Part shown: one piece after another, positions 39,408-61,320 of the stretch
Position numbering within the stretch: the stretch's first letter is position 1
How the letters are laid out: each line of letters starts with the position of its first letter
NCBI GenBank assembly: GCA_902544065.1
Contig: CACCAS010000004.1
Span: 64,219 to 128,218 of the forward strand
Source: an uncultured Pelagibacteraceae bacterium
Lineage (GTDB): Bacteria; Pseudomonadota; Alphaproteobacteria; Pelagibacterales; AG-422-B15
Reading direction: 5' to 3'
DNA length: 64,000 nucleotides
The notes under the pieces: generated by a model
What the model was told of the DNA's origin: nothing
The model's input: only the letters and a program-made list of their open reading frames with translations
The model's database searches: none
Translations under genes and position numbers: made by a program

Positions 39408-40244
39408 TTGAAATATTTGTCAGAAAATAGATATAAAGGAGAGATAAAAGGTTTGGTATTAGACTGGAGTGGAACTACTGCTGACGCATACGTGATTGCT
39501 CCAACTATAGTGTTTGTTGAGGTTTTTAAGAAACAAAAGGTTGTAATCTCCATGGAAGAGGCAAGAGAACCCATGGGTTTACGAAAAGATTTACATATAA
39601 AAGCACTCACAGAGAACGCTGAAATAAGAAAGCGCTGGAACATAGTACATGGTAAAGACCCACAAATGTCTGATGTTGAAAATATGTACGCAGATTTTGT
39701 TCCACTGCAGCTTAAATGCTTAAAACAATACTCAAAATTATTACCCGGAACAGCAGAAGTAATTAAACGGGTTCAAAATAGCGGTATAAAAGTTGGTTGC
39801 ACAACTGGTTTTGTGCGGTCAATGGTTAATATTTTAGAGGAAGAATCAGCAAAACAGGGATATGTCCCTGATGCGTCAGTTGCAGGTGATGATGTTAAAA
39901 ATGGCGTTCGGCCCCTTCCCCACATGTTATATAAAAATTTAGATATAATGAATATAGAATCCATTCAATCAGTTATAAAAGTTGATGATACTGTTTCAGG
40001 AATTGGAGAAGCAATTAATGCTGGTTGTTGGGGTGTTGGTGTAACGAGATATTCGAATTATATGAATATAAATTCCTTAGAAGAAGCTGATGAACTGAGT
40101 AAAGAAGAAATTGATATGAAACAAGGATATGCAAAAGATCTGCTTTATAAAGCAGGTGCGCATTACGTAATAGAAACTATTGCAGATATCGAGGCCGTTA
40201 TTGATGATATTAACAAAAGGCTTTCACGTGGTGAAGGGCCTTAA
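39408..40244 (+). CDS. phnX: Phosphonoacetaldehyde hydrolase (phosphonatase)
   Basis: HAD nucleophile motif LDWSGTT, EEAREPMGLRKDLHIKALTE (Schiff-base Lys region), KVDDTVSG; aligns along its full length with remembered Bacillus PhnX; TTG start. Confidence 0.85.
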   Translation: MKYLSENRYKGEIKGLVLDWSGTTADAYVIAPTIVFVEVFKKQKVVISMEEAREPMGLRKDLHIKALTENAEIRKRWNIVHGKDPQMSDVENMYADFVPLQLKCLKQYSKLLPGTAEVIKRVQNSGIKVGCTTGFVRSMVNILEEESAKQGYVPDASVAGDDVKNGVRPLPHMLYKNLDIMNIESIQSVIKVDDTVSGIGEAINAGCWGVGVTRYSNYMNINSLEEADELSKEEIDMKQGYAKDLLYKAGAHYVIETIADIEAVIDDINKRLSRGEGP

Positions 40245-40756
40245 AAGTTGATTACAAATTTTTCTTGTTCCTCTGTTTCAATTGTACCTGGCCGGCAATT
40301 CCTTACATGATTTATGCATTGCTTTGAATCTAGTCCTAGTGCCTTTAAAATAAGTGAAGCAAACATTCCAGATCTACCTAATCCAGCATAACAATGCAGG
40401 TAAACATTTTTATTGAGTTCTAACTGAGTAACACAATCTCTGATAATTTGACTATATTCATTTTTTTTAATCTGAGCTGGAATACCATAGTTTTTTATGG
40501 GCATGCTGTAGGCCCTAACATTCTTCTCCTCTAGATCTTTATGGAACTGATTAATTTCAAAATTTCTAATTTCATTAAGTTCTATCAATGAAACAACGAG
40601 TGATATATTTAAGTCGATGATAATGGTTAAATCTTTTTTATAAGTAAATTTATCAAATCTAGAATTACTGATACCTGGACAACTGGATATAACCAAATTA
40701 CCAAGATTTTTTTTTGCTTTAACAATTTTCGAAAGCTTTATTTTAGTAAAGTTCAA
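40241..40756 (-). CDS. Cys-based dual-specificity phosphatase, KAP/CDKN3-like
   Basis: PTP loop HCYAGLGRSG (HCx5R), downstream RPGTIETEEQ motif; TTG start in TTGA overlap with the upstream HD gene; no signal peptide. Confidence 0.7.
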   Translation of the reverse strand: MNFTKIKLSKIVKAKKNLGNLVISSCPGISNSRFDKFTYKKDLTIIIDLNISLVVSLIELNEIRNFEINQFHKDLEEKNVRAYSMPIKNYGIPAQIKKNEYSQIIRDCVTQLELNKNVYLHCYAGLGRSGMFASLILKALGLDSKQCINHVRNCRPGTIETEEQEKFVINF

Positions 40757-41352
40757 ATATAGGACTTTGTAATAAAAGGATGAAAGAATGAAATAGCTTC
40801 AGTTTTCTTTCCCCTAATTTTTGCATTGTCATCATACTTTCGAAGTCTTACTGCATCTTCAAAATATTTATGACTTTCCAGTTTTCGAATAGCATCTTTG
40901 TTTAAATATCCGCCTTGAAGTTTAAAACTTCTTTTGGAGCCATCTGAAAGACCGTCATAATAATCTGATTGAACGGAACATAGATATCTCTTTGCAATAA
41001 CGTGCATTTTAATTGGGTAAGTAACTTCTTCAGGGAAATACTTGGATAAAAAAGATGCAGCAACGTTTTCATGATACTTGTCATTGTTTAAAAAATCATG
41101 GCTATTTACATCTTCGCCAGTCAACATATGCCCTAAATCGTGAAATAATGAAGCAGTAATAAATTTATCACTTTCATTATTTTCTTTAGCTAAGGTTGCG
41201 CACTGAAGAGCATGTTGTAATTGAGTAATCTCTTCGTCATAAAAACTGCACGAACCTCTTTGATCAATAATTTCACATAAAACATTGGTACGCTCAATAA
41301 TTGAAGCTGAATTTAATTTATTTTCTAGAGATTGGATTTTATCTAATTGCAT
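40753..41352 (-). CDS. HD-domain (MIOX/PhnZ/TmpB-type) phosphonate-degradation oxygenase-like protein
   Basis: QLQHALQCA, SLFHDLGH, HVIAKRYL, YYDGLSDGSKRSFKLQGG, LRKYDDNAK: the ligand and motif pattern of PhnZ-type diiron oxygenases. Confidence 0.75.
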   Translation of the reverse strand: MQLDKIQSLENKLNSASIIERTNVLCEIIDQRGSCSFYDEEITQLQHALQCATLAKENNESDKFITASLFHDLGHMLTGEDVNSHDFLNNDKYHENVAASFLSKYFPEEVTYPIKMHVIAKRYLCSVQSDYYDGLSDGSKRSFKLQGGYLNKDAIRKLESHKYFEDAVRLRKYDDNAKIRGKKTEAISFFHPFITKSYI

Positions 41353-41397: not shown

Positions 41398-41447
41398 CTG
41401 TAACATTAGTGTAATAAATTGCAAAATATCTGTCATAAAAATGCAAC
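41398..41447 (+). promoter_or_regulatory. Tandem Pho boxes (PhoB sites) upstream of phnC
   Basis: CTGTAAC-atta-GTGTAAT-aaat-TGCAAAA-tat-CTGTCAT-aaaa-ATGCAAC: 7-bp direct repeats at 10-11 bp phasing, ending 40 nt before the phnC ATG. Confidence 0.7.
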
Positions 41448-41486
41448 TTTGATTTAATTTTTTTGTATTACTTTTCATTCATACTA

Positions 41487-42290
41487 ATGATCAAAGTAGA
41501 GAAATTAAATAAGTATTTTGGTGACAACCGTGCAGTAAACGATGTCACATTTGAAATTAATAAACCTGAAATGATTGGTATCATTGGCAGATCTGGTGCT
41601 GGAAAGTCAACATTACTGAGAATAATGAATCGTCTAACCGACGCAACTAGTGGATCTATTTTTATTGAAGGTAGAAATATACTTTCATTAACAAAGAAAG
41701 ACAAACGAGCATGGCAAAAAGATTGTGCCATGATATTTCAGCAATTCAATCTTGTGCCCCGTTTAGATGTTTTAACAAATGTAATTCTTGGAAGATCAAA
41801 TATTCAAGGTACTTTACGATCAAGCTTAAAACTTTTCACTAAAGATGAACGCGTTGATGCATTGATGGCTCTGGATAAATTGGGAATGGCTGAAACCGCG
41901 CTGCAAAGAGCAGAGACTTTATCTGGTGGACAGCAACAAAGGGTTGCAATTTGTAGAGCTATGATGCAGCAACCAAAAATGATTTTAGCCGACGAGCCTA
42001 TTGCATCGCTAGACCCTCTTAATGCCCGACTTGTAATGGAATCACTTAGAAATATTCATAGAGAAAAGCAGATTACTGTTCTTGCAAATCTTCATACTCT
42101 TGATACCGCTAAAAATTATTGTGACAGAATCATTGGCATGAGACTTGGGGAAATTGTTTTTGATGATGTACCTTCAAGTTTAAAAGATGATGTTGCTAGA
42201 GAAATTTATGGCGCTGAAGCTGAAGAAGCATTTGAACCAACAGTTACTTCAACTTCACTTGGTGACGAACAGTTTGCAGAGGCAGGATAA
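41487..42290 (+). CDS. phnC: Phosphonate ABC transporter ATP-binding protein
   Basis: Walker [10 protein letters not shown], signature LSGGQQQRV, Walker B ILADEP; start set at ATG 41487 (MIKVEKL) rather than TTG 41463. Confidence 0.9.
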
Positions 42291-42343
42291 TGTTAGCCTT
42301 TTCAAAAAAAAAACTTAACAACTAACAAGGAGATATACTAAAA

Positions 42344-43303
42344 ATGATTAAAAATTTAGTAAGGTCTATTATTGCTTGTTCATTCCTATTTGTGTCTGCA
42401 AATGCATACGCATGGGATGTATCTGGCTATAAAGGGCCAACAATGGACTTGAGTAAATATCAACCTGAAATGAGACTTGGATTTTTAGGCGATGAATCAG
42501 CTCAAGACATTATTAAGAATAATGCATGTCTAAAGGAATATGCGGAAGTTGCATATGGAGTACCAGCTAAAATTTATACTTTTAAAGATTATGCAGGAAC
42601 AATGGAGTCAATGCTTGGTGGCAGCTTAGACTATGCTTGGTTTGGCTCATCAGGATATGCGGGTATATATCTAGAAGATCCTACCGCTACTGTACCAATT
42701 TTAACCAGAATGCAGCCAACAGGAGATATGGGCTATTATTCAGTCATGGTTACAAGAGCAGACTCAGGTATCAATTCAATTGATGATTTAAAAGGTAAAT
42801 CTTTTGGATGGGCTGATCCTAATTCAACATCTGGTTATCTAATACCATCAATCGAATTAAAAGCTGCAGGAATGGATCCAGACTCATACTTTGGCTCTAC
42901 ACAATTTTCAGGTGGTCATGAAAATAACGTTTTGGCAGTTCTTAATGGTGATATCGATGCAGGTGTGACATGGGTATCTGGAGTTGGTGAATGGAGCGAA
43001 GGTTACTCTTCTGGAAATCTGAGAAAAATGGTTGATAAAGGACTATTAAATATGGATGACATCAAACAGATTTGGTCATCTGCTTTGATACCAAATGGAC
43101 CGATTGTAATGCCAACTAATATGCCTGTGAGAGCGCATCAGGTCATGGTAGGCATGAAGCAGTGGATCCATGAAAATGACCCACAATGCAGCGAGAATGT
43201 TGCAAATGGAGTTGTTAAAGCTTGGGTGCCAGTCGACCATAGTTTCTATGAAACTATTGTAGCTGCTCGTAAAGCTAAAATTGAAGCTAAAAAAGCCGAA
43301 TAA
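42344..43303 (+). CDS. phnD: Phosphonate ABC transporter periplasmic binding protein
   Basis: Signal peptide, PhnD-type motifs (DPNSTSGYLIP, HENNVLAVLNGDIDAG); GGAG SD upstream. Confidence 0.85.
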   Translation: MIKNLVRSIIACSFLFVSANAYAWDVSGYKGPTMDLSKYQPEMRLGFLGDESAQDIIKNNACLKEYAEVAYGVPAKIYTFKDYAGTMESMLGGSLDYAWFGSSGYAGIYLEDPTATVPILTRMQPTGDMGYYSVMVTRADSGINSIDDLKGKSFGWADPNSTSGYLIPSIELKAAGMDPDSYFGSTQFSGGHENNVLAVLNGDIDAGVTWVSGVGEWSEGYSSGNLRKMVDKGLLNMDDIKQIWSSALIPNGPIVMPTNMPVRAHQVMVGMKQWIHENDPQCSENVANGVVKAWVPVDHSFYETIVAARKAKIEAKKAE

Positions 43304-43327
43304 ATTTCGGTAGTTGTTTGCTAACTT

Positions 43328-43353
43328 AAGAGGATGGCATGCCCCATCCTCTT
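43328..43353 (+). promoter_or_regulatory. Intercistronic stem-loop after phnD
   Basis: Perfect 10-bp stem AAGAGGATGG/CCATCCTCTT with 6-nt loop, 25 nt after the phnD stop; no adjacent U-tract. Confidence 0.5.
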
Positions 43354-43367
43354 AATTAGCAGTTTAT

Positions 43368-44234
43368 TTGGAGGAAACATTGCAATCATCATTGCCAGAA
43401 AATTTAATTAAAATTGAAAATAATTTAAAATCTCTTACAAGAACAAGATCAATTTATTCTTTTCTCTCAATTGCGGCATTGATAGCAGTTATTTATTCGG
43501 GTTTAATTGTAGCAGAAACAGGAAATGCGACTAGCATCTGGGTTGGATTACCTAAATTTTTCGATTACCCAGTTGATCTATTTGTTGGGTCATGGGAATA
43601 CGGCTATAGATGGAATTTATTGTTACTTGAATACCTTCCAGATTTAATAAGCACTATTAATATGGCTCTATTTTCAACAGCAATGGGTACGTTGCTAGCC
43701 TTTTTTTTAAGTATTTTTTCAAGTCGTAATCTAATCAAAAGTAAAACTACTGTATTAATATTTCGACGCATCATGGATATATGCAGATCGTTTCCAGAAT
43801 TAGTTATTGCGCTTGTTTTGTTGTATCTACTGGGAAAGTCAGCACTGCCTGCTGTAATTGCCATCATAATTCATACCGCAGGAGCTCTTGGCAAATTGTT
43901 TTCAGAAGCTATTGAGAATGTCGACAAAAATCCAATTGAAGGTCTTGAGTCCTGTGGAGCTTCATGGTTTACCAGAATAAGATTTGGTGTGGTAACTCAG
44001 GCACTCCCTCTATTTCTAACTTACACAATTTTAAGATTTGAGATTAATATAAGGGCTTCAACTATTTTGGGATTTGTTGGCGCTGGAGGTATCGGTGAGC
44101 AACTTTACACTAATATACAGTGGAAATATGAAGCTGACACTATTGCAATAATGTTTTTACTTGTGTCTACGATCATTGCATTGGATTACTTATCAAGTTA
44201 TTGGCGAAAATCATTAATAGGATTGAAATCATGA
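43368..44234 (+). CDS. phnE: Phosphonate ABC transporter permease (short form)
   Basis: 6 TM, EAA-type loop SEAIENVDKNPIEGLESCGASWFTRIRFGVVTQALP; TTG start. Confidence 0.85.
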   Translation: MEETLQSSLPENLIKIENNLKSLTRTRSIYSFLSIAALIAVIYSGLIVAETGNATSIWVGLPKFFDYPVDLFVGSWEYGYRWNLLLLEYLPDLISTINMALFSTAMGTLLAFFLSIFSSRNLIKSKTTVLIFRRIMDICRSFPELVIALVLLYLLGKSALPAVIAIIIHTAGALGKLFSEAIENVDKNPIEGLESCGASWFTRIRFGVVTQALPLFLTYTILRFEINIRASTILGFVGAGGIGEQLYTNIQWKYEADTIAIMFLLVSTIIALDYLSSYWRKSLIGLKS

Positions 44235-45640
44235 ACAGGTCTGAAATTATTAAAAATTATTCAGATATAGTAGTTACTAAATTTTCATCTAAAATGTGGT
44301 CAACTTTTTTAGTGCTCGGGATTATAGTGTATTTAATCATAGCAATTTTAAGCCTCGACATATTGCAGATTCATAAAAAATGGAGTCCTGAAAGAGCTTC
44401 TTTGTTTGCCCTCGACACATATGCACATAAAGACCATGTCACAATGAAATGGAGTGAACCAGATGATATAATTATATCCTTTGAAGGAAGCAGGTGGTCT
44501 CAGTATGTTGGCCCCTATCAAAAAAGTGACGGTCTTCCAGAAAGGTATCCTGAATGGACTTCCATAGGTCCAGAGGGTGAAACAAAAATAAGTTTTAAAA
44601 ATGGAGGGTTTGCAAATCTATACGATGATAAAGTTACAATAGAAAACTGGCCAGACACCAAAGAAACACTTGTTTTTCGTCTTGATGCACAAGGTAAGCC
44701 TTACGTTGAAAATGTAGATAATCTCCCAAAATGGATAAGGGTAACGGAAAATAAAATAGAGGTTAGACCATCTCTTTACGAAAGAGTTCAAGTTTATTCA
44801 AAAAAAGTTGAAGTACATAGGTACAATCTTGGTTGGAACTATTTCTGGTTTGACTTTGACAGTCCTTTAGAACCATATGGAATTTGGAATGCTATTTCAC
44901 TTTCATTCTCAGGCGATAGAGTTGACCCCAATATTTCAAATTTTTCGCTTCTAATTCAAGAATTTCTAAATAATGATATGTGGCATCATGGACAAATATT
45001 GTGGGCTTTATTAGAGACAATTTTTATGGCTCTATTGGGCACCCTACTAGCAGCTCTTCTGGGTTTTCCTCTGGCATTTTTTGCAGCTTACAATGTAACG
45101 CCTTTTAAATTTGTTCGAACGATATTAAGACGGTTATTTGATACATTAAGAGGCATCGATTTTTTGATTTGGAGCTTAATTTTTTTAAGAGCCTTCGGAC
45201 CAGGACCATTTACTGGAATATTTGCTATTGCAATTACAGATACAGGAACTCTTGGAAAATTAATGTCTGAAGCAATAGAAAACACTGAAGAAAAGCAACA
45301 AGAAGGTGTAGAGTCTACGGGAGCGAATAAAACTCTTCAACACAGATTTGGAATTATACCTCAAATACTTCCTATTTTTATTTCCCAAACTCTTTACTAC
45401 TTAGAATCAAACACGAGAGGAGCTGTTATTATAGGTGCCATGGGCGCAGGCGGCATAGGTTTACAATTACTTGGAGCAATAAATACGGGTACCAGTTGGG
45501 AAAATGTTATGTATATGTCATTATTGATTTTAGGAGTTGTTATTTTCATGGATACAATGTCCGCAAAAGTAAGAAGAGCTTTGATTGGTGATGAAACGCT
45601 AGGAGCAGAATTACAATTGGCAAAAATGGCAAAAAAATAA
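44231..45640 (+). CDS. phnE: Phosphonate ABC transporter permease (long form with about 215-aa extracytoplasmic insertion)
   Basis: ATGA overlap with the first phnE; one TM, then a hydrophilic Trp-rich domain, then a canonical PhnE core with loop SEAIENTEEKQQEGVESTGANKTLQHRFGIIPQILP. Confidence 0.85.
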   Translation: MNRSEIIKNYSDIVVTKFSSKMWSTFLVLGIIVYLIIAILSLDILQIHKKWSPERASLFALDTYAHKDHVTMKWSEPDDIIISFEGSRWSQYVGPYQKSDGLPERYPEWTSIGPEGETKISFKNGGFANLYDDKVTIENWPDTKETLVFRLDAQGKPYVENVDNLPKWIRVTENKIEVRPSLYERVQVYSKKVEVHRYNLGWNYFWFDFDSPLEPYGIWNAISLSFSGDRVDPNISNFSLLIQEFLNNDMWHHGQILWALLETIFMALLGTLLAALLGFPLAFFAAYNVTPFKFVRTILRRLFDTLRGIDFLIWSLIFLRAFGPGPFTGIFAIAITDTGTLGKLMSEAIENTEEKQQEGVESTGANKTLQHRFGIIPQILPIFISQTLYYLESNTRGAVIIGAMGAGGIGLQLLGAINTGTSWENVMYMSLLILGVVIFMDTMSAKVRRALIGDETLGAELQLAKMAKK

Positions 45641-45693: not shown

Positions 45694-46131
45694 ATGACCA
45701 AATTTATTCAATTCTTTTTAATAACGTCGTACATGTTATCATCTCTTGCTCTTGCAGACAGTCATGAAGACAATACAATTGGGCAAGCTGGAAGTGACTA
45801 TTCTACCAATACTGAAAGTACATACGAGAGCAATATAGGAAACTGTGAAGATTTAAGTATATTAATGCTCCGTGGATCAATTAAAAACGATATACAGCGA
45901 GCTGACCCAGATTCAGCAACGAAAGCACATAATTTAATGCTTGAAGGAATGGAATTGTGTAATAAAAATCAAAACGTCCTTGCAAAAATGAAATTGAAAG
46001 AGGCTCAAACTATAGCGAGAGAAGGCAATGTTGCCGGACAAGATATGAGAATTGGAATTGTTAATGAGTCAGACGAACTGCAAGAAGAGACAGAAAATGA
46101 AAAAGAAAAGTCATGGTGGCAGATTTTTTAA
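45694..46131 (+). CDS. Secreted hypothetical protein (145 aa, helical, acidic C-terminus)
   Basis: Signal peptide MTKFIQFFLITSYMLSSLALA; no recognised family. Confidence 0.5.
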   Translation: MTKFIQFFLITSYMLSSLALADSHEDNTIGQAGSDYSTNTESTYESNIGNCEDLSILMLRGSIKNDIQRADPDSATKAHNLMLEGMELCNKNQNVLAKMKLKEAQTIAREGNVAGQDMRIGIVNESDELQEETENEKEKSWWQIF

Positions 46132-47820: not shown

Positions 47821-48522
47821 TTATAATTTGCTTACTTCTAATTGAATTTTACTTCCAACGAAATAACTATCACTTATCTCAATTGGTTTGTTATTAATAT
47901 CTGTATTTATTGCTTTTGTATGTATTAACGGGTCTCCGATATTTATTTTTAAATATTTGGATTGTACATTATTCGCACTCTCTGCTGATACTGTTGTTTT
48001 TTTTCTATATATTTTTTTTAATCCATATTTATTAAAGGACAATGTCATAGAGCCAGTTTTACGAAAAAATAAATCAAAATTTTTAAATCTTTTTTCTGGG
48101 ACTAATCTTTCTGTTAAAATAAGTGGAATACCATTAGCTTTAGAGATTGTATAAATATAGAAAACTGAATCATTTTTTTTTAAATTAAATTCTCTTATTT
48201 CATTGCTGTACCCTTTTCTCTTATCTATAGAAATAATATCTACAGCAATATCAGTAGTCTCTTGATTTAAATTATGTGATGCCCTTACTGTTTTTCCGAT
48301 TTTATAATTTATTTTCTTAGAGTTGAGAAAATATCCTAAACCTCTTCTCGAATAAATGATATTTTCTTTTTTAAGGGCCTCGATTCCACGTCTAACTGTA
48401 TGCCTATTCACCTTAAAAAGCTTAGCATAATAGTTTTCAGAATAGATTTTTTCCCCTAATCGAAGCTTACGATCAATAATATCTTTTTTTATTGAGTCCC
48501 TTATTTCTTCCCAGGCAAACAT
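47821..48522 (-). CDS. phnF: GntR/HutC-family regulator (PhnF-like)
   Basis: N-terminal winged HTH (YSENYYAKLFKVNRHTVRRGIEALKKENIIYSRRGLGYFL) + UTRA-like C-domain; divergent from phnG. Confidence 0.8.
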   Translation of the reverse strand: MFAWEEIRDSIKKDIIDRKLRLGEKIYSENYYAKLFKVNRHTVRRGIEALKKENIIYSRRGLGYFLNSKKINYKIGKTVRASHNLNQETTDIAVDIISIDKRKGYSNEIREFNLKKNDSVFYIYTISKANGIPLILTERLVPEKRFKNFDLFFRKTGSMTLSFNKYGLKKIYRKKTTVSAESANNVQSKYLKINIGDPLIHTKAINTDINNKPIEISDSYFVGSKIQLEVSKL

Positions 48523-48529
48523 TTAGCTA

Positions 48530-48547
48530 TTGTAACATATTTTTAAT
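48530..48547 (+). promoter_or_regulatory. Possible weak Pho box upstream of phnG
   Basis: TTGTAAC-atat-TTTTAAT: the first half-site is good and the second has one mismatch to the local nTGTAAT consensus. Confidence 0.3.
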
Positions 48548-48575
48548 AATTAAATTGAAACGAATCGTCATAATT

Positions 48576-48603
48576 AGTATAGTATACTTGTATAGTTGTA
48601 TAG
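48576..48603 (+). promoter_or_regulatory. Candidate PhnF (HutC-type) operator
   Basis: Perfect palindrome AGTATA-G-TATACT (48576-48588), then tandem TTGTATAG-TTGTATAG (48588-48603), ending 6 nt before the phnG ATG. Confidence 0.45.
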
Positions 48604-48609
48604 ATTAAT

Positions 48610-49041
48610 ATGGAAAGAAAATTTTGGCTTAGTACATTGGCTACATGCAATGATGCCCACCTAACTTCTCTTTGGGAAAAATTTGGTATTGAGGTAAATT
48701 TCACATGGCTTAGAAAACCGGAAATAGGCAGTATAATGTGTCAAGGAAAAATTGGAGTAACAGGAAATAATTTCAATTTTGGTGAAGTTACTATTACCCG
48801 TTGTCAATTGAAAACCTCACAAGGAAAAATTGGTCACGGATACGTGCAAGGAAGAAATAAATATAAGGCTGAAATTGTTGCTATATGCGATGCTTTACTG
48901 CAAACAAATAAAAGAGATTTTTTAATCAAAAATATAATACGCCCTCTAGTTGTAAGCGATAAAAATTTAAAAAAGGATGTAATGTCAAAATCAGAGTCAA
49001 CAGCTGTCGATTTCTTTACATTGGTGCGAGGTGAAACTTGA
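48610..49041 (+). CDS. phnG: C-P lyase core complex subunit PhnG
   Basis: Size and position; FNFGEVTITRC motif; first gene of the phnGHIJKL block. Confidence 0.85.
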   Translation: MERKFWLSTLATCNDAHLTSLWEKFGIEVNFTWLRKPEIGSIMCQGKIGVTGNNFNFGEVTITRCQLKTSQGKIGHGYVQGRNKYKAEIVAICDALLQTNKRDFLIKNIIRPLVVSDKNLKKDVMSKSESTAVDFFTLVRGET

Positions 49042-49042
49042 A

Positions 49043-49597
49043 ATGATTAATACAAATGAAAACGAGTCTATTATAAAAGCCGATGCATTCAGAGCTATAT
49101 TGTTTGCAACTTCTTATCCTGGATCAATTGAAAAGTTTTTAGAGATAAATAAACCTAAACAAATTTCTACATCTTCAGCTTCTATTTTGTCCACTATGTG
49201 CGATCACACCAGCACCATTTATATTGGAAAATCATTAGATACTAAATCCTTAAGAGATTGGGTAGCCTTTCATACAAACTCTAAAATAGTAGATAAAAAA
49301 TTTGCAAATTTTGCAATTGGTACTTTCCATGACATGTTGCCCCTTACAGAGTTCTCTAGAGGATCAGACGAGTTTCCGGATAGATCATGTACATTAATAA
49401 TTGAGACACCCTTTAAATCAGACAATGTAAGTATTTCGGGGCCCGGTATCAAAGGTAGCAAAGATATCTACTTACCTCATGCGAATAAAATAAGTGATGT
49501 AAATAACTACTTCCCCCTTGGTATAGATTTCTATTTTACCAATAAAAGCAATTTTTTTTGCATTCCAAGATCAATAAAAATTAAAAAGAAAGGATAG
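49043..49597 (+). CDS. phnH: C-P lyase core complex subunit PhnH
   Basis: FRAILFATSYPG motif; ATG 49043 preferred (GAGGTGA SD 9 nt upstream) over in-frame GTG 49031. Confidence 0.85.
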   Translation: MINTNENESIIKADAFRAILFATSYPGSIEKFLEINKPKQISTSSASILSTMCDHTSTIYIGKSLDTKSLRDWVAFHTNSKIVDKKFANFAIGTFHDMLPLTEFSRGSDEFPDRSCTLIIETPFKSDNVSISGPGIKGSKDIYLPHANKISDVNNYFPLGIDFYFTNKSNFFCIPRSIKIKKKG

Positions 49598-49602
49598 TTT
49601 CT

Positions 49603-50673
49603 ATGTATGTAGCTGTTAAAGGTGGTGAAAAAGCAATTGAAAATGCTCATAATTGGCTTTCAGAAATAAGGAGAGGTGATGTTAATGTTCCCAACCTCGA
49701 AATTGATCAAATTAAAGAACAGTTGACATTGTCTGTTGAAAGGGTCATGTCAGAAGGATCATTATATGATACTGATCTAGCAGCTCTCGCCATAAAACAA
49801 TCAAGAGGTGACCTTATTGAAGCCATCTTCTTAATCAGGGCCTATCGTACAACTCTACCAAGATTTGGAACATCCCCCCCTATTAAAACAGAAGATATGG
49901 TATGCATGAGAAGAATCTCAGCAACTTATAAAGATATTCCTGGAAAACAAAAATTGGGGCCTACATTTGATTATACACACAGACTTTTAGACTTTAGTTT
50001 ACTGGCTGAAGGCAATATACCTAAGGCAGAAAAACGAAAAGTATTAAAGGAAAAAATACCTCACGTACTGAGATTTTTAAATAAAGAAGGCCTTATTCAA
50101 AAAGAAAAAAATAATAATTATCAGCCAAAAGACATCACAAGAAATCCACTTGAGTTTCCAGCTAATAGAAGTGAGAGGTTACAATCACTTTCTAGAGCCG
50201 ATGAAGGATTTCTTCTTGCTTTAGCTTATTCAACTCAAAGAGGCTACGCTAGAAATCATGCTTTTGTAGGTGAATTAAGAATTGGTTATGTAAAAGTTAA
50301 GTACAACATTCCAGAATTAGACATTGAGATCGATATTGCAGAAATAATTGTTACTGAGTGCGAGAGTGTAAATCAATTTCAAGGAAGCAAAAAAACACCC
50401 GCACAATTTACACGAGGATATGGATTGACATTTGGTCAATTAGAAAGAAAGGCAGTATCAATGGCCCTAGTCGATAGGGCATTAAGGTGGAAAGAAATTG
50501 GTGAAGAGTTTGTCGGAGCTCCTGCTCAGGATGAAGAGTTTGTATTGTCACATTGTGATAATATACAGGCAACTGGGTTTTTGGAACATTTAAAGTTACC
50601 CCATTATGTTGATTTTCAATCAGAGCTGGAATTGGTTAGAAGAATTCGTAAAGAGTATGAGAAAAACAAATAA
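49603..50673 (+). CDS. phnI: C-P lyase subunit PhnI (nucleosidase/ribosyl-transfer component)
   Basis: MYVAVKGGEKAI start, AIKQSRGDLIEAIFLIRAYRTT motif. Confidence 0.9.
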   Translation: MYVAVKGGEKAIENAHNWLSEIRRGDVNVPNLEIDQIKEQLTLSVERVMSEGSLYDTDLAALAIKQSRGDLIEAIFLIRAYRTTLPRFGTSPPIKTEDMVCMRRISATYKDIPGKQKLGPTFDYTHRLLDFSLLAEGNIPKAEKRKVLKEKIPHVLRFLNKEGLIQKEKNNNYQPKDITRNPLEFPANRSERLQSLSRADEGFLLALAYSTQRGYARNHAFVGELRIGYVKVKYNIPELDIEIDIAEIIVTECESVNQFQGSKKTPAQFTRGYGLTFGQLERKAVSMALVDRALRWKEIGEEFVGAPAQDEEFVLSHCDNIQATGFLEHLKLPHYVDFQSELELVRRIRKEYEKNK

Positions 50674-51547
50674 CGTAATTAAGATTAAAGATTTCAAAGT
50701 AGACAAAGGTCTACCTTTTGATCAAGAATATAATTTTGCGTATTTAGATGAGAATACAAAAAAAATGATAAGACGTGCAATAATAAAAGCTTTATGTATT
50801 CCAGGTTATCAGGTTCCTTTTGCCTCTAGGGAAATGCCTATGCCATATGGATGGGGAACAGGTGGAGTCCAAGTTACTGCGAGCTGCTTAACAAAAAGAG
50901 ACACTTTAAAAATAATAGATCAGGGAGCTGACGATACTACCAACGCTGTATCAATAAGAAATTTTTTCAAAAAAACTTCAAATATTAAAACTACTGAAAT
51001 TACTGAAAAAGCAACACTGATACAAACTAGACATAGAATTCCTGAAACACCATTAAAAAAGAAACAAATATTTGTTTATCAGGTACCCATCCCTGAACCC
51101 TTGGCCTTTCTAGAACCTAAAGTATCTGAAACAATAAAAATGCACTCTCTTTCCGAATATGGCGCAATGCACGTAAAGCTCTATGAAGATATATCAAAAA
51201 ATGGGCATATAGAAACCGCTTACGCTTATCCAGTAAAAACTAATGATCGTTATATAATGGATCCATCCCCAATACCAAAATTTGATAATCCTAAAATGAA
51301 TAACTCACCAGCGATACAGCTATTTGGTGCTGGAAGAGAACAAAGAATTTATGCTATTCCACCATATACAAAAGTTAAAAGTCTCGATTTTGAAGACTAC
51401 CCATTTGACCCATTTAAAGCTGAACACGCGTGTGATATTTGTGGATCAAAGAATACATATTTAGATGAGATTATTGTTGATGATGCGGGAAATAAATCTT
51501 TTATTTGCTCAGATACAGATTTTTGTAATAAAAGAAAAAATAAATGA
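50657..51547 (+). CDS. phnJ: C-P lyase radical-SAM catalytic subunit PhnJ
   Basis: YNFAYLDE, MPMPYGWGTGG (glycyl-radical Gly region), C-terminal four-Cys cluster CDICGS...CSDTDFC; start at ATG 50657, 17-nt overlap with phnI. Confidence 0.9.
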   Translation: MRKTNNVIKIKDFKVDKGLPFDQEYNFAYLDENTKKMIRRAIIKALCIPGYQVPFASREMPMPYGWGTGGVQVTASCLTKRDTLKIIDQGADDTTNAVSIRNFFKKTSNIKTTEITEKATLIQTRHRIPETPLKKKQIFVYQVPIPEPLAFLEPKVSETIKMHSLSEYGAMHVKLYEDISKNGHIETAYAYPVKTNDRYIMDPSPIPKFDNPKMNNSPAIQLFGAGREQRIYAIPPYTKVKSLDFEDYPFDPFKAEHACDICGSKNTYLDEIIVDDAGNKSFICSDTDFCNKRKNK

Positions 51548-52314
51548 TAATCCCTCTTTTAAAAGTTACAAATTTAAGCAAATCTTATGATAATATTGTT
51601 GGATGTAAAAATATTTCAATGTCACTATATCCAGGTGAAGTATTGGGCATTGTCGGTGAGTCTGGTTCTGGTAAAACAACCTTAATTAACTGCTTATCCG
51701 GCAATCTTGAGCCTGATAGAGGAAAAATAATTTTCAATATTAACAACAAAGAAACCGACTTTTTAAATATATCAGAGTCAGAGAAAAGAAAATTTATTAG
51801 AACAGATTTAGCTTTTGTTCATCAAAACCCACGTGACGGATTAAGATTAAATGTATCAGCAGGTGGTAATATAGGCGAAAAATTAATGTCTGTTGGCTAT
51901 AGACATTATGGAAATATAAGAAGCTTAGCAACAAAATGGATGAATAAAGTTGAAATAGACAAAAGTAGAATTGATGATCTACCCATTACTTTCTCAGGTG
52001 GAATGCTTCAAAGACTTCAAATAGCAAAAAATCTAATAACAAGCCCAAATGTTATTTTTATGGATGAACCAACTGGTGGGCTAGATGTTTCAGTTCAAGC
52101 TCGTGTTCTTGATTTGATAAGATCACTTGTTAATGAGTTGAACCTTACAGTAATTATTGTATCACATGATTTAGCCGTTATCAGATTACTTGCAGATAAA
52201 ATGATTGTCATGAAAAACGGTACTGTAATCGAGTCTGGTTTAAGCGATCAGGTACTTGAAGATCCTCAGCAAGAATATACACAGCTATTAGTAAGTTCGG
52301 TGTTACACGTTTAG
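51544..52314 (+). CDS. phnK: C-P lyase ATP-binding subunit PhnK
   Basis: ABC ATPase motifs GESGSGKTT, FSGGMLQR, FMDEPTGGLD; ATGA overlap with phnJ. Confidence 0.9.
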   Translation: MIIPLLKVTNLSKSYDNIVGCKNISMSLYPGEVLGIVGESGSGKTTLINCLSGNLEPDRGKIIFNINNKETDFLNISESEKRKFIRTDLAFVHQNPRDGLRLNVSAGGNIGEKLMSVGYRHYGNIRSLATKWMNKVEIDKSRIDDLPITFSGGMLQRLQIAKNLITSPNVIFMDEPTGGLDVSVQARVLDLIRSLVNELNLTVIIVSHDLAVIRLLADKMIVMKNGTVIESGLSDQVLEDPQQEYTQLLVSSVLHV

Positions 52315-52315
52315 T

Positions 52316-52990
52316 ATGATTGAGGTAAAAAAAGTTAATAAATCGTTTACTTTATTTAACCAAAATAACGCGAAGATAACAGTTTTTAAAAATTTAAATT
52401 TTGAGGTTAATCCAGGTGAAATTGTAGCCCTTAAAGGACCATCAGGCATAGGTAAATCAAGTATTTTAAAGATGATTTATGGAAGTTATATAATTGATAA
52501 GGGTGCTATAATTATAAATAATAAAAATATTGCCACTCTATCGGCTCAGGAAATACTTAAACTTAGAAAAACTTCAATTGGGTATGTGAGCCAATTTTTA
52601 AAAGTGATACCCCGTATTTCTGCTTTGGATGTAATAATGGAACCATTATTAAATTCAGGTGATAATAAAAATAATGCTTATAAAAAATCGATAAAACTTT
52701 TAAAGGACTTAAATATTGAGAAGAATTTGTGGCACTTATCTCCGCTAACTTTTTCTGGGGGCGAGCAACAGAGAATTAATATCGCACGAGGTTTTATAAA
52801 AGACCTTCCTTACTTGTTACTCGATGAGCCAACTGCAAGTCTTGACAGTAGAAATCGTGATATAATTATCAATTTAATTAAAGCGAAATCTAATAGAGGC
52901 GTATCAATTATTGGAATCTTTCATGACGAATATTCTCGAAAAAAGTTGAATGTAAGAGAGATTGATCTAAACATTGAAACAAAGCATTAA
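52316..52990 (+). CDS. phnL: C-P lyase ATP-binding subunit PhnL
   Basis: ABC ATPase motifs GPSGIGKSS, FSGGEQQR, LLDEPTASLD. Confidence 0.9.
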   Translation: MIEVKKVNKSFTLFNQNNAKITVFKNLNFEVNPGEIVALKGPSGIGKSSILKMIYGSYIIDKGAIIINNKNIATLSAQEILKLRKTSIGYVSQFLKVIPRISALDVIMEPLLNSGDNKNNAYKKSIKLLKDLNIEKNLWHLSPLTFSGGEQQRINIARGFIKDLPYLLLDEPTASLDSRNRDIIINLIKAKSNRGVSIIGIFHDEYSRKKLNVREIDLNIETKH

Positions 52991-53525
52991 AAGAAACGGC
53001 AAGGCTTTTATCGTCTTAGGTCCATCAGGATCTGGTAAAAATACCCTTATAAATGGAGCCTGTAAAAATATCGATAATCTAAAGGCGATCAAAAGATACA
53101 TTACAAGAACTAAAATAGATATTAATGAAGACTATAACCCTATTGATGAAAAAATATTTACACAAATGAAGAGTGAAAATTTATTTTGTACAACATGGAA
53201 TGCAAATAATTGCAATTATGGTATTCACAAAGATGCAATTGATGATCTTAAAGATGGAAAAAACATAATATTTGCTGGATCTAGAGAATATATAAATAAT
53301 ATATTATATGATATATCCTCTTCTATCGTTATACACATAAATGCTACTAGCAATTTATTGAGTCAACGAATTTTTGATAGAAAAAGAGAGAACGAATTCG
53401 AAATCAACTCTCGAATAAAAAGAGAAAATTATAATTTACCAACAAGTACAAAATTTGTAGAAAATAATAGCAGTATTGATCAAGGTATTATGAATTTAAC
53501 TGCATTAATTAAAAGTTTAATTTAA
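52974..53525 (+). CDS. phnN: Ribose 1,5-bisphosphate phosphokinase PhnN
   Basis: Guanylate-kinase-like P-loop GPSGSGKNT, 183 aa, TTG start, 17-nt overlap with phnL. Confidence 0.8.
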   Translation: MKQSIKRNGKAFIVLGPSGSGKNTLINGACKNIDNLKAIKRYITRTKIDINEDYNPIDEKIFTQMKSENLFCTTWNANNCNYGIHKDAIDDLKDGKNIIFAGSREYINNILYDISSSIVIHINATSNLLSQRIFDRKRENEFEINSRIKRENYNLPTSTKFVENNSSIDQGIMNLTALIKSLI

Positions 53526-54225
53526 ACCTTTTTATTTCCTCAAAATGGCCATTTTTATTTTCACCAAGTAAACTAATTTCATTAAATTCAATTACATTAT
53601 TTGATATTTTGTAAATTAATTTTTCTAGTTCTAATTTTTGTTTGTTAGATAATTTATTGTTATTTTGGTTCATTAGCGTCATATGAAATTTAAACTGATC
53701 AAAGACGAATGGATATCCCCACTCTTTTAAATATTTGTTTTGCTTAATAGTTAAAGAATCAGGGATCCTTTTTTTTATTTCTGTTTTATTTAGCTCTGCC
53801 CTAAAAGTATCTAGATGTTTAACAAGATCATTCTCAAGGTTTATTAATAATTTGTTTGGTTTTCTGCTAGTTATGAAAGTAAATTTTTTACTATAAACAA
53901 TTTTTAAACCTTGTATCTTAAATCTACTATGTTGTGCTGCTATATGGCTAATAACATCATAAAAATTTTTTGTTTTAACATTTCTTTTAAGTCTAAATGG
54001 TGCCTTTAATGTTGCGTGAAACCCATACTTTGCAGGCTGTTCACAATAGTCTTTAAGTTCATCAAAGAATGTAAAACCTCTATTAATAAAATATTTTTGA
54101 CGTCTTGTTAGTGATATTTTTTTCTTTTTATTGATATCTCTACCTAAAAGGTTTTTTCCGAAGTTTTCTAAACTCGAGTTTTTTTTAGGCAAAAAGTAAA
54201 TTGCCACTCTTTTGTAATTAGTCAT
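53509..54225 (-). CDS. DUF1045-type 2H-phosphoesterase associated with phosphonate metabolism
   Basis: Two HxT motifs (YGFHATLKAPF and FKFHMTLMNQ) diagnostic of the 2H superfamily; sits where phnP would be. Confidence 0.75.
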   Translation of the reverse strand: MTNYKRVAIYFLPKKNSSLENFGKNLLGRDINKKKKISLTRRQKYFINRGFTFFDELKDYCEQPAKYGFHATLKAPFRLKRNVKTKNFYDVISHIAAQHSRFKIQGLKIVYSKKFTFITSRKPNKLLINLENDLVKHLDTFRAELNKTEIKKRIPDSLTIKQNKYLKEWGYPFVFDQFKFHMTLMNQNNNKLSNKQKLELEKLIYKISNNVIEFNEISLLGENKNGHFEEIKRFKLNF

Positions 54226-54274
54226 AATACTTTAACAATAATCTAATAAATTAGTAATATCTTGTTAAATAAAT

Positions 54275-55417
54275 ATGAATGAATTTGTAATAAAAAATGC
54301 CCATATTGTTTGTCCGGACGAATCTTTTATGGGCCATGTTTACATTGCAAACGGTATAATAAAGGATTTAAGTAAAGGAAATTATACAGGAAATTCTGCT
54401 TTCGATTTAAACAAGGATTTCTTAATTCCTGGTTTAATCGAACTTCATACAGATAATATCGAAAGACATTTAACACCCAGGCCAAAAGTAGAATGGCCAA
54501 TTATAAACGCATTGCTAGCTCATGATAGAGAATTGTCTTCCGTCGGTATAACCACGGTATTTGATGCACTTAGAGTTGGATCGATACCAAAAGGGAACCT
54601 TCAAGGTGAATATAAAAAATATGCTAAAGCAACAGCTGACCAAATTTCAACTTTAAAAAAAAATAAACTTTTTAAAATTGACCATTATATTCACTTGCGT
54701 GCAGAAACCGCATCTGAAACGTTAGCAAATGAACTTGATGAGTTTGATGAATCAAGCAACGTTAAAATGATAAGCATTATGGACCATACACCGGGACAAA
54801 GACAATTTAGAAATACAGATAAATATAAGGAATATTTAGCGGGTAAATATCAACTATCTGATGAAGAAATGGAAAATCACTTCTCTAAATTAAAAGCACT
54901 GCAGTCAAAAAATAGTGAAATACATATAAAGAAAATATCTGAAGCACAAATGAGATTTCAATGTGTTCTTGCGAGTCATGATGACACTACTATAGAAGAT
55001 GTATTAAGTTCAAAAAATCTAGGAGTTTCAATAGCAGAATTTCCAACCACAATCGAAGCAGCAAAAGAGTCGCAAAAAGAAGACATGAAAATTATCATGG
55101 GTTCGCCAAATTTAATGAGAGGTGGGTCACATTCTGGAAATATTTCAGCTCAAGAACTCATAGACGAAAATTGCCTTGATATTTTTAGCTCTGACTATAT
55201 CCCGTCATCCCTACTTTCTTCAGCTGTCAAATGGGGTTTAGAGTCCGGTAATATGCCAAAAGCAATTGCCTCTATTTCAAGAAACCCAGCAATAGCTACA
55301 CAGCTTCTAGACCGAGGTAGTATACAGTGCGGCATGAAGGCGGACCTAGTTAGTTTCAGTATTTATAACAATTTACCAATAGTAAAAAAAGTATGGGTAT
55401 CTGGACAAGCGATATAA
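54275..55417 (+). CDS. phnM: Ribosyl-methylphosphonate 5-triphosphate diphosphatase PhnM (amidohydrolase fold)
   Basis: GLIELHTDNIERH metal motif, SIMDHTPGQRQF, ASHDD motifs. Confidence 0.9.
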   Translation: MNEFVIKNAHIVCPDESFMGHVYIANGIIKDLSKGNYTGNSAFDLNKDFLIPGLIELHTDNIERHLTPRPKVEWPIINALLAHDRELSSVGITTVFDALRVGSIPKGNLQGEYKKYAKATADQISTLKKNKLFKIDHYIHLRAETASETLANELDEFDESSNVKMISIMDHTPGQRQFRNTDKYKEYLAGKYQLSDEEMENHFSKLKALQSKNSEIHIKKISEAQMRFQCVLASHDDTTIEDVLSSKNLGVSIAEFPTTIEAAKESQKEDMKIIMGSPNLMRGGSHSGNISAQELIDENCLDIFSSDYIPSSLLSSAVKWGLESGNMPKAIASISRNPAIATQLLDRGSIQCGMKADLVSFSIYNNLPIVKKVWVSGQAI

Positions 55418-56056: not shown

Positions 56057-56485
56057 TTATTTAAGCAAATTTTCTTTTATTAATTGATCAATATAATCAA
56101 ATGTAGATCTAAAAAACTTTTTGTGATCGACTTCGTTTAAGTTCTGTTTAACGGGGTCTTCAATATTGAAATGAAATGTTTTTGGAGCACCCGGCCAGAT
56201 CGGACATGTTTCTTTAGCGGCATTTCCACACACAGTAACGACATAATCCATAGAGGGAGAGTTGGGCTCACCAAATACGTCCCAACTTTTACTATAGAGT
56301 TTCTCAGTCGGTATTTTCATATCATCTAATAAATCGAGTGTTTTAGGATTTATTATTCCTGAAGGTGTGCTACCAGCGCTATAGCCTTTCAGACTTTCAC
56401 TATATTTATAATTGGTAATTGCCTCAGCTATAATGCTTCTGGCTGAATTTTGCGTACATAAATATAAAACATTTTTAATGCTCAT
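56057..56485 (-). CDS. arsC: Arsenate reductase, LMW-PTPase (thioredoxin-coupled) type
   Basis: P-loop CTQNSARS plus downstream Cys pair (VTVCGN, ETCPIW), as in pI258/Bacillus ArsC. Confidence 0.85.
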   Translation of the reverse strand: MSIKNVLYLCTQNSARSIIAEAITNYKYSESLKGYSAGSTPSGIINPKTLDLLDDMKIPTEKLYSKSWDVFGEPNSPSMDYVVTVCGNAAKETCPIWPGAPKTFHFNIEDPVKQNLNEVDHKKFFRSTFDYIDQLIKENLLK

Positions 56486-58621: not shown

Positions 58622-58629
58622 ATTCTATT

Positions 58630-61297: not shown

Positions 61298-61320
61298 ACT
61301 TCACCATAATGCTTATTCAA

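Follow-up and report, generated by a model that had tools for sequence, protein, structure and literature searches.

A predicted Cys-based phosphatase, encoded in overlap with a PhnZ-family oxygenase gene in SAR11, recurs in marine phosphorus islands

The main new result of this analysis is that distant homologues of a small, predicted cytoplasmic Cys-based phosphatase are linked to phosphorus islands in several marine lineages. In the 64-kb stretch of SAR11 DNA that was analysed (the window), the gene of this phosphatase overlaps that of a PhnZ-family HD-domain oxygenase (the HD protein). The distant homologues (26-40% identity) occur in SAR116 and also in other SAR11 and further marine alphaproteobacteria. 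They were located in 59 loci, and phosphorus genes lie within 6 kb in 28 of these and a phosphonate ABC importer in 22; counted by clusters at about 55% identity, phosphorus genes are found in 11 of 28 and a phosphonate importer in 7 of 28. Most commonly, the homologues are encoded 3' of phosphonate permease genes, or beside pst/pho, PHO4, ppk/ppx or plcP-agt-like genes, and in these settings there is no adjacent HD gene. Beside phosphonate importers the phosphatase gene is often the last gene of the operon, and in two clusters it overlaps the PhnU2 permease gene or lies at most 25 nt downstream of it. Other neighbours are TmpAB/plcP-agt-like/phnCDEE, C-P lyase, pst-phoU-phoB, PHO4-PhoU_div and ppk-ppx-SixA genes, and homologues of the pst/pho block of the window (36-69% identity) flank phosphatase homologues in other islands. 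A preliminary description of the window had proposed a co-occurrence check, and this check shows that in other lineages, too, the phosphatase family is linked to phosphonate genes. The phosphatase recurs in phosphorus islands but is not a proven partner of the oxygenase. A related gene set has been described for flexible genomic islands of HIMB59, where ppx, SixA, ppk, a tyrosine phosphatase gene (Wzb), and LpxH-like and RfaG-like genes lie by pst/phoBR (PMC10734472), and by gene set alone this matches locus L026, which carries a phosphatase homologue. The part of that account consulted here takes the tyrosine phosphatase to act on Wzc and to free phosphate only incidentally, and draws no link to phosphonate importers or PhnZ.

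The island in the window is a Pelagibacter HTCC7211-type phosphorus island (Table 1). Carini et al. are said to have reported in 2014 on the phosphate-starvation response of HTCC7211. Both genes of the pair are present with the motifs that had been described (ORFs, translations), and their divergent orientation to phnC, phnD, phnE and phnE2 was also given correctly. The importer proteins score 321.9 (TIGR02315), 263.7 (TIGR03431) and 237.2 and 242.3 bits (TIGR01097), all of them above the cut-offs, and the ATG at 41487 is the probable start of phnC. The protein of 145 aa encoded after phnE2 had no match in the Pfam scan, and homologues with 30-34% identity are likewise encoded 3' of phnE2 in SAR116 loci. 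The preliminary description did not include the context on the other side of the pair, i.e. phnX, which adjoins the phosphatase gene, and the C-P lyase cluster, which is 6 kb away. phnX and the phosphatase gene lie tail-to-tail, their stop codons overlapping in TTAA, and the C-P lyase cluster and then pst-phoU-phoB follow downstream. Pfam matches to PhnG, PhnI, PhnJ and GntR were obtained on a contig that is 98-100% identical to the window (L002), DUF1045 scored 130 bits, and phnH, phnK, phnL, phnN and phnM were assigned by eye. The name 'phnZX' was already used for HTCC7211 by Grote et al. 2012 (PMC3448164), and an arsC-aquaporin module has been described for the same strain (PMC6426599). An SDR-PNPOx-phnX operon for 2-hydroxyethylphosphonate was considered and rejected: in L001, L020 and L089, SDR and PNPOx reach just 57-62% identity, as against 91-99% for the island genes, and they thus belong to the flank and not to the island.

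Table 1. Positions of the features in the window
Feature	Position	Strand	Basis or remark
phnX, phosphonoacetaldehyde hydrolase	39408..40244	+	TIGR01422, 282 bits, above the cut-off of 220
Predicted cytoplasmic Cys-based phosphatase, DSP/PTP fold, 171 aa	40241..40756	-	Pfam, PDB, AF2 model
TTGA overlap, HD stop TGA and phosphatase start TTG	40753..40756	-	direct sequence reading
Predicted HD-domain diiron oxygenase of the PhnZ family (199 aa), 5' gene of the pair	40753..41352	-	profiles, PDB matches, ligands
11-bp-phased Pho-box-like half-sites, divergent phnC/HD intergenic region	41398..41447	+	position
Phosphonate ABC importer phnC, phnD, phnE, long phnE2	41463..45640	+	divergent from HD gene
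145-aa protein, signal-like N-terminus	45694..46131	+	conserved
phnF-like GntR regulator and C-P lyase cluster phnGHIJKL, phnN, DUF1045, phnM	47821..55417	.	translations
MIP and LMW-PTP-type arsC	55418-56485		by eye from translations
phoB, phoU, pstB, pstA, pstC, pstS	56482..62442	-	by eye from translations

Judged by its sequence, the HD protein belongs to the PhnZ family of diiron oxygenases, and its metal ligands are intact. It contains the motifs QHALQCA, FHDLGH, AKRYL, DYYDGLSDGSKRSFKLQGG and LRKYDDNAK, and it matches the structures of TmpB (6npa, E 2e-30) and PhnZ (4mlm, E 5e-24). The preliminary description had proposed a diiron HD oxygenase and had named ligand loss as a refuting observation; in an alignment of 23 sequences including PhnZ and TmpB, all six iron ligands (H47, H71, D72, H94, H117 and D174) are intact and invariant, and the HMMER alignments to 4mlm and 6npa agree on this set. 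The highest profile score is obtained with the hydroxymethylphosphonate dioxygenase model NF052439 (187.8 bits), which represents GmPhnZ1 of the PhnY*-PhnZ1 oxidative methylphosphonate pathway of Gimesia maris, followed by TIGR03276 (Phn-HD, 177.6 bits) and NF049941 (TmpB, 151.2 bits), and all three scores remain below the equivalog cut-offs of 300, 214.6 and 300, respectively. The nearest relatives of the HD protein outside SAR11 (42-47% identity) match the hydroxymethylphosphonate dioxygenase model best, with 242-271 bits, and the HD protein has the SFYDE loop as well as all metal ligands in common with them. In both of the two relatives that were looked up, a PhyH gene that scores 345-353 bits to methylphosphonate hydroxylase overlaps the HD gene from upstream, whereas the HD gene of the window has no adjacent methylphosphonate hydroxylase gene and overlaps the phosphatase gene downstream. 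PhnZ (HF130_AEPn_1; 4MLM) and TmpB (6NPA) are of the same fold family and have the H...HD...H...H...D set as well as the loop Glu, but they are only 31-32% identical to the HD protein, operate with PhnY* or TmpA, and may differ in the substrate-gating YxxE loop (Y24/E27 in PhnZ, Y30/E33 in TmpB; PMC8177086). The Glu of this loop is invariant in the alignment, E40 of the HD protein corresponding to E27 of PhnZ, whereas the iron-binding loop Tyr (Tyr24 of PhnZ, Tyr30 of TmpB) aligns to Phe37, with Tyr38 at the +1 position; the SFYDE sequence is found in the PhyH-coupled relatives too. As the profile scores are below the cut-offs and the loop Tyr aligns to Phe37 with Tyr at +1, the substrate of the HD protein could differ from any characterised one. 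A metagenome scan with the HD protein as query recovered three loci only. The HD gene and the phosphatase gene are both under purifying selection.

That the window lacks a PhnY or TmpA gene, as had been noted before, agrees with all searches: two hydroxylases of PhyH type and one of TmpA type, used as tblastn queries, gave no match in the 64 kb or in the SAR11 loci, Pfam scans of neighbours and unassigned ORFs in the window detected no 2OG oxygenase, and in 20 SAG loci the surrounding 6 kb are free of PhyH/TauD genes. The accompanying statement that known members of the family need PhnY* or TmpA is too strong. Table 1 of Zangelmi et al. 2021 lists phnZ without phnY* in 15 phnWX and 24 phnWAY clusters, which has been interpreted as direct use of natural (R)-1-hydroxy-2-aminoethylphosphonate, R-HAEP (PMC8154272). 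A lone PhnZ is therefore already known and not new here. As in those clusters, the phnZ-type gene of the window is close to a phosphonatase gene, being only one gene away from phnX, but it is the phosphatase gene that lies between the two, and there is no phnW in the window.

The phosphatase, as far as its sequence can tell, is a small enzyme of the archaeal-PTP/DUSP23 type and belongs to a widespread family. Its P-loop HCYAGLGRSG (H121-C122-YAGLG-R128-S129) has the H, C, G, G and R that are invariant in 16 homologues, and the TTG start is supported by the fact that the homologues align from their first residues (NFTK/NFSR). Pfam assigns PTP-SAK (47.8 bits), Tc-R-P (35.6), Y_phosphatase (35.4), DSPc (31.5) and CDKN3 (PF05706, 24.2), and in sequence the best matches among solved structures are the archaeal SsoPTP and Tk-PTP and human DUSP23/VHZ (E about 1e-9), with which the protein has the HCxxGxGR(S/T)G loop and the RPGxIETxxQ motif in common, although identity is only about 25% and the phosphorus-island setting sets it apart. 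The AF2 model (pLDDT 90.5) was matched by Foldseek with probability 1.00 to KAP, PRL, SsoPTP and VHZ at TM-scores of 0.6-0.8, namely 0.80 for KAP, 0.72 for PRL and 0.69 for SsoPTP. The earlier comparison with KAP/CDKN3 thus holds for the structure, as KAP has the highest TM-score over the full length, but it is weak in sequence, with 20% identity, an E-value of 0.004 to KAP (1fpz), a PF05706 score close to the cut-off of 20.7 bits and no CDK-related context. Four other Pfam phosphatase families outscore PF05706, and membership in KAP/CDKN3 was rejected by sequence. Nor is the family unusual in bacteria, as had been assumed, since 3169 representative clusters match at E < 1e-3 in the full HMMER search; this search was required to find the distant homologues, as a word-index search had returned only copies with at least 97% identity. 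One of the closest relatives, P0128, is on a 913-bp contig beside a MaoC-like gene. A peculiarity of the SAR11 proteins concerns the general acid: the family consensus is PIxD, but the phosphatase of the window has PIKN (Asn89), and Asn is also present in the three other Pelagibacteraceae members, whereas all other homologues have Asp.

The 4-nt TTGA overlap of the two genes was read correctly in the preliminary description, and the same overlap is found without exception in the complete loci of HTCC7211 type, of which 20 are from SAGs and two from metagenome contigs; 20 species-representative genomes of Pelagibacteraceae have kept this tight arrangement. Together with an HD gene within 6 kb in three phosphatase clusters, the conserved overlap means that there may be a functional link. 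In the genotype L001/L089, however, the phosphatase gene is reduced to about 60 nt and phnX is absent, while the HD gene is intact and shows a dN/dS of 0.23-0.29 against that of the window. As this deletion genotype keeps the oxygenase without phosphatase and phnX, the pairing points to co-regulation within the island and not to a demonstrated two-step pathway, and the pathway that had been suggested before is not supported as a dedicated one, as most phosphatase homologues also lack an adjacent HD gene. Locus L041, in which HD and phosphatase genes are adjacent, was considered as an independent case of the pairing and rejected, because its phosphatase falls into the L048-type cluster and its gene order is that of the L048 type except that the four transporter genes which separate HD and phosphatase there are missing, which suggests a deletion.

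As for a common control, the tandem Pho boxes described earlier correspond to an array of Pho-box-like half-sites that lies 46 bp from the HD start, but the frequency of such matches is at chance level. The half-sites are CTGTAAC-, GTGTAAT- and CTGTCAT-like; CTGTAACATTAGTGTAAT (41398-41415) has 2 mismatches to the type found upstream of pstS, CTGTCAT follows at 41430, phased half-sites extend to 41447, and the array resembles the triple site upstream of pstS. The window contains 13 Pho-box-like matches in total, with 12.4 expected from shuffles, and the argument for a Pho box here is thus its position. A scan of the window with the E. coli Pho-box consensus missed the site, and a sigma-70 scan did no better than on shuffled sequence.

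We give an about even chance to the explanation that the pair consists of co-regulated genes of an HTCC7211-type phosphate-starvation island, possibly controlled by PhoB and co-translated, which encode a stand-alone HD oxygenase and an island Cys-phosphatase and not two steps of one pathway. The HD protein would then be a mixed-valent diiron oxygenase that acts on already hydroxylated 1-hydroxyalkylphosphonates, most likely hydroxymethylphosphonate (HMP) and/or R-HAEP, which would be imported by PhnCDEE2; the G. maris enzyme has been reported to cleave both (PMC10574752). Fe1 would hold the phosphonate and the 1-hydroxyl group, O2 at Fe2 would abstract the C1 hydrogen, and C-P cleavage would yield phosphate and formate or glycine, while the C-P lyase and PhnX encoded nearby would deal with unhydroxylated phosphonates. 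The second protein would be a cytoplasmic enzyme of Cys-phosphatase fold that accompanies phosphorus-acquisition islands of marine alphaproteobacteria. Cys122 of the HCx5R loop would attack a bound tetrahedral oxyanion, and Gln164 would place the water that resolves the covalent intermediate. With Asn in place of the general-acid Asp in SAR11, the substrate probably does not need protonation of the leaving group, and it may rather be a phosphoanhydride, an acyl or aryl phosphate, a phosphoramidate or an oxyanion than an alkyl phosphate.

What alternatives exist for this explanation? If the two proteins acted in sequence, the HD protein would cleave the C-P bond of a phosphonate monoester, e.g. 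a glycerol- or sugar-linked hydroxyphosphonate, and the co-translated phosphatase would free phosphate from the resulting phosphate monoester. We consider such a sequence quite unlikely. It would fit to the conserved overlap, to the three clusters with an HD gene in the vicinity, to the 3-nt gap between the two genes in L041 and to a GDPD gene 5' of TmpAB in a phosphatase-bearing SAR116 island, but the L041 adjacency may come from a deletion, L001/L089 keep an intact HD gene without the phosphatase, most phosphatase homologues have no HD gene next to them, Asn89 argues against alkyl phosphate monoesters, and the PhnZ literature cited here gives no phosphonate monoester as substrate of any PhnZ. 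It is likewise improbable that the system follows the classical oxidative route, with a PhnY*-type hydroxylase encoded elsewhere in the genome that acts on methylphosphonate or 2-AEP, the HD protein cleaving its product, and the phosphatase as an unrelated neighbour. The coupling of the closest non-SAR11 relatives to PhyH-type methylphosphonate hydroxylases speaks for this route, and the hydroxylase search covered 64 kb of the genome; yet these 64 kb include the whole phosphorus island, the 20 SAG loci have no such gene nearby either, the hydroxylase gene overlaps the HD gene in the two relatives mentioned, and methylphosphonate is already covered by the C-P lyase of the island.

Other possibilities concern the phosphatase-fold protein, which might not be involved in phosphorus scavenging at all and could be a thiol-based arsenate (oxyanion) reductase or a regulator of the Pho system or of transporters, an idea that we regard as rather doubtful. 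Cys-phosphatase scaffolds have given rise to two known families of arsenate reductases, and a reductase would protect phosphate-starved cells that import arsenate or arsonate analogues via phosphate and phosphonate importers. All SAR11 members have lost the general acid but retained the P-loop, PRL phosphatases, which are a close structural match, act by binding transporters, and several arrangements bring homologues close to arsenic genes (MIP-ChrA-phosphatase in L043, MIP...phosphatase/ChrA in the L032 type, phosphatase...ArsC-MIP in L041, phosphatase...ArsP_2 in L026), others adjoining phoB/phoR. To our knowledge, however, there is no arsenate reductase of DSP fold, the island of the window already has an LMW-PTP-type arsC and an aquaporin, the general-acid Asp, which working phosphatases have, is retained by most of the family, and adjacency to arsenic genes does not discriminate, because these are ordinary residents of phosphorus islands. 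Dimethylarsenate induced phnD 2-fold in HTCC7211 (PMC6426599), which can be counted in favour of a reductase or regulator.

A more far-reaching idea, which we put forward tentatively and hold to be probably incorrect, is that the DSP-fold protein is a dedicated and hitherto unrecognised component of the machinery by which the dominant marine alphaproteobacteria (SAR11, SAR116 and further marine lineages) acquire phosphonates and phosphate, either as a finishing phosphatase for the C-P cleavage products of esterified phosphonates, or as a third, DSP-derived arsenate/oxyanion reductase. If this were true, the Asp-to-Asn exchange in SAR11 would mark a shift in chemistry, and the reductase form would protect cells that import phosphonate look-alikes.

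SAR11 cells with this island dominate phosphate-poor ocean gyres, and global surveys count phnZ-like genes as '2-AEP degradation'. The finding of an HD protein that groups with a hydroxymethylphosphonate-type clade, has no hydroxylase partner and is encoded beside C-P lyase alters the substrates that counts of phnZ genes imply. The phosphatase gene is a conserved gene 3' of phosphonate importers in several abundant marine lineages, and once the substrate of its product is identified, the picture of phosphorus scavenging in the sea would gain a missing step or a protective function.

The principal new result is that homologues of the phosphatase recur in phosphorus islands. A scan of species-representative genomes with the phosphatase alignment gave 59 loci with distant homologues (26-40% identity), which were annotated with a panel of island proteins, Pfam and NCBIfam. 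Phosphorus genes lie ≤6 kb from the homologue in 28 of the 59 loci and a phosphonate ABC importer in 22; at the level of clusters (about 55% identity), the fractions are 11/28 and 7/28, respectively. The transporter-phosphatase arrangement phnT2-phnU2-phosphatase, convergent with PHO4 and PhoU_div, is present at 10 loci (full order: phnW, HD, EamA-phnS2, phnT2-phnU2-phosphatase), and two clusters have the phosphatase gene on the same strand as the PhnU2 permease gene, either overlapping it or beginning ≤25 nt 3' of it. In SAR116, the orders are phnS2, phnT2-phnU2-phosphatase; GDPD-TmpA-TmpB-metallophosphoesterase-GT4-x-phosphatase, convergent with phnE2, phnE, phnD, phnC; and C-P lyase...phosphatase, convergent with phnEEDC. 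Further orders are MIP-phnEEDC, phosphatase, ChrA...phoB-phoU-pst; ppx-ppk-SixA-GT4-metallophosphoesterase, phosphatase; and MIP-ChrA-phosphatase adjoining phoR-phoB. As a "Wzb tyrosine phosphatase" is listed in the same gene set of HIMB59 phosphate islands, island residence of such a gene had already been seen, in passing and without being studied (PMC10734472). A ChrA-family chromate transporter gene adjoins the homologue in two distinct clusters (loci L043 and L032).

Features of the window and of compared loci (L numbers: other genomes or metagenome contigs)
Feature	Sequence	Position	Strand	Remarks
Membrane protein paralogues	window	33717-35805	-	tandem trio, 225, 235, 236 aa; no Pfam match for the single member scanned
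phnX	window	39408-40244	+	TIGR01422, 282 bits (cut-off 220)
Phosphatase gene	window	40241-40756	-	ORF, 171 aa, TTG start
Asn89 codon	window	40490-40492	-	general-acid position
HD-domain protein gene	window	40753-41352	-	ORF, 199 aa
Phased half-sites	window	41398-41447		Pho-box-like
phnE2	window	44201-45640	+	479 aa; PhnE core match confined to residues 228-461
145-aa protein	window	45694-46131	+	signal-like N-terminus; no Pfam match
DUF1045 gene	window	53509-54225	-	between phnN and phnM
pstS-upstream matches	window	62479-62518	-	three, overlapping, CTGTAATAAAACTGTTAT type
Island edge	L020	7349-9359		compared with window 38074-39371
Deletion genotype	L001	1437-2275		window equivalent 40696-40756
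Deletion genotype	L089	345-1142		identical junction
ChrA-phosphatase	L043	3843-6477		MIP-ChrA-phosphatase, divergent from phoR-phoB
ChrA-phosphatase	L032	5992-7718
phnW/HD gene	L041	2712-5952		divergent
phnW/HD gene	L048	1-1058		divergent

In the window (G+C ~31%), the two ORFs contain every motif cited in the preliminary description, and the overlap it reported is read directly from the sequence, with TTGA common to the HD stop (TGA) and the phosphatase start (TTG). Both genes are found in the same arrangement, with 93-100% amino acid identity, in 20 species-representative Pelagibacteraceae genomes (single-cell or metagenome) and also on two metagenome contigs; one additional locus is truncated by a contig end. 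The locus is a phosphorus island of HTCC7211-type SAR11, for which "phnGHIJKLMN and phnZX" had already been given (Grote et al. 2012, PMC3448164). The phosphatase gene lies tail-to-tail with phnX, the stop codons overlapping, and the divergent importer genes upstream of the pair, correctly described before, are phnC, phnD, phnE and a long phnE2, each above its curated cut-off. Then follow a GntR regulator, phnGHIJKL, phnN, DUF1045 and phnM, an aquaporin and an LMW-PTP arsC, and phoB-phoU-pstBACS; phnX, the C-P lyase cluster and the pst/pho context had been absent from that description. phnP is not among the genes recognized in the window. In phnE2, ~220 residues are N-terminal to the PhnE core, and long forms are present too in SAR116 and Rhodobacteraceae-like loci; the 145-aa protein directly after it has homologues (30-34% identity) likewise after phnE2 in three SAR116 loci (L028, L029, L044). 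PhoB control of the pair is plausible from the phased half-sites, which are similar to those upstream of pstS (statistical support was not reached with matches counted window-wide); the pstS-upstream matches give a local consensus unlike the E. coli box.

The island boundary lies just past phnX, between phnX and PNPOx: in L001, L020 and L089, SDR and PNPOx beyond it are only 57-62% identical to the window, island genes 91-99%. As L020 combines island genes of 95-99% identity with a PNPOx of 62% and an SDR of 58%, transfer of the island between divergent SAR11 backgrounds is suggested.

The HD protein matches the PhnZ-family models for hydroxymethylphosphonate dioxygenase (187.8 bits), Phn-HD (177.6) and TmpB (151.2), all three below the curated cut-offs, and the solved structures of TmpB (E 2e-30) and PhnZ (E 5e-24). 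Its metal ligands are retained: H47, H71, D72, H94, H117 and D174 are invariant in an alignment of 23 sequences, as is the loop glutamate E40 (PhnZ E27). The iron-gating tyrosine (PhnZ Y24, TmpB Y30; PMC8177086) is replaced in the alignment by Phe37, the next residue being Tyr38. Homologue identity falls from 91% directly to 50% or less; the nearest non-SAR11 relatives have the SFYDE loop in common (42-47% identity). As their best model is hydroxymethylphosphonate dioxygenase (242-271 bits), and as in both of the two relatives looked up an upstream overlapping PhyH gene matches methylphosphonate hydroxylase, the SAR11 protein is a diverged branch of the clade for methylphosphonate oxidation, without its hydroxylase.

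A stand-alone PhnZ is not new. The preliminary description held that known members need a PhnY* or TmpA partner, which is overstated given phnZ without phnY* in 15 phnWX and 24 phnWAY clusters, interpreted as a route for natural (R)-1-hydroxy-2-aminoethylphosphonate (Zangelmi et al. 2021, PMC8154272); for the G. maris enzyme, cleavage of both this compound and hydroxymethylphosphonate has been reported (PMC10574752). The simplest reading is an oxygenase for ready-made 1-hydroxyphosphonates imported by PhnCDEE2. In other marine alphaproteobacteria (L041, L048, L062, L080), phnW and a PhnZ-like HD gene are divergently oriented, with no phnX, phnA or phnY* within 6 kb; L041 additionally encodes proteins resembling ureidoglycolate lyase and the phosphodiesterase SpdA.

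The phosphatase has the HCx5R(S) loop and RPGxIETxxQ. The proposed likeness to KAP/CDKN3 holds for the fold, as KAP is the best structural match of the confident model (pLDDT 90.5; TM-score 0.80, then PRL and SsoPTP), but not for family assignment by sequence, where small archaeal PTPs and DUSP23 are nearest (E about 1e-9) and KAP/CDKN3 is much weaker (E 0.004; PF05706 24 bits vs PTP-SAK 48). Nor is the family unusual in bacteria, with 3169 representative clusters at E < 1e-3. The general-acid Asp (PIxD) is Asn89 here and Asn in 4/4 Pelagibacteraceae lineages (window, L003, L025, L026), which are only 34-38% identical to each other, while the remaining members compared all have Asp; dN/dS of 0.14-0.30 indicates purifying selection. 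The Asp-to-Asn change in SAR11 argues against alkyl phosphate esters and favours either good-leaving-group substrates or oxyanion chemistry.

Which other readings could explain the pair? A sequential two-enzyme pathway on esterified hydroxyphosphonates would agree with the overlap conserved in the 20 Pelagibacteraceae genomes and two metagenome contigs, but an HD gene is ≤6 kb from the phosphatase in only three clusters. The only other locus with both genes adjacent, L041, was rejected as an independent pairing because it belongs to the phosphatase cluster of the phnT2U2 type and has the same gene order minus the four transporter genes, pointing to a deletion. Moreover, one deletion genotype with identical junction in two independent assemblies (L001, L089) lacks phnX and keeps only ~60 nt from the start of the phosphatase gene, with 1 nt deleted, next to an intact HD gene (91-95% identity; dN/dS relative to the window, 0.23-0.29); the oxygenase is therefore retained without the phosphatase. 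Together with the Asn at the general-acid position, we consider such a pathway improbable. The classical pathway, with the hydroxylase encoded at another genome location, would suit the PhyH-coupled relatives; neither the SAR11 loci nor the window, for which the absence of such a gene had been noted before, yielded a PhyH or TauD relative, and we give this explanation little credence. An arsenate-reductase role of the phosphatase would be compatible with oxyanion chemistry, and a regulatory role is the other form of this reading; the island has an LMW-PTP arsC of its own, and we regard either role as rather unlikely.

The favoured reading is that both genes belong to the island and are regulated together. 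The phosphatase would be an island-associated enzyme of Cys-phosphatase fold, and the HD protein would be a stand-alone oxygenase acting on 1-hydroxyphosphonates.
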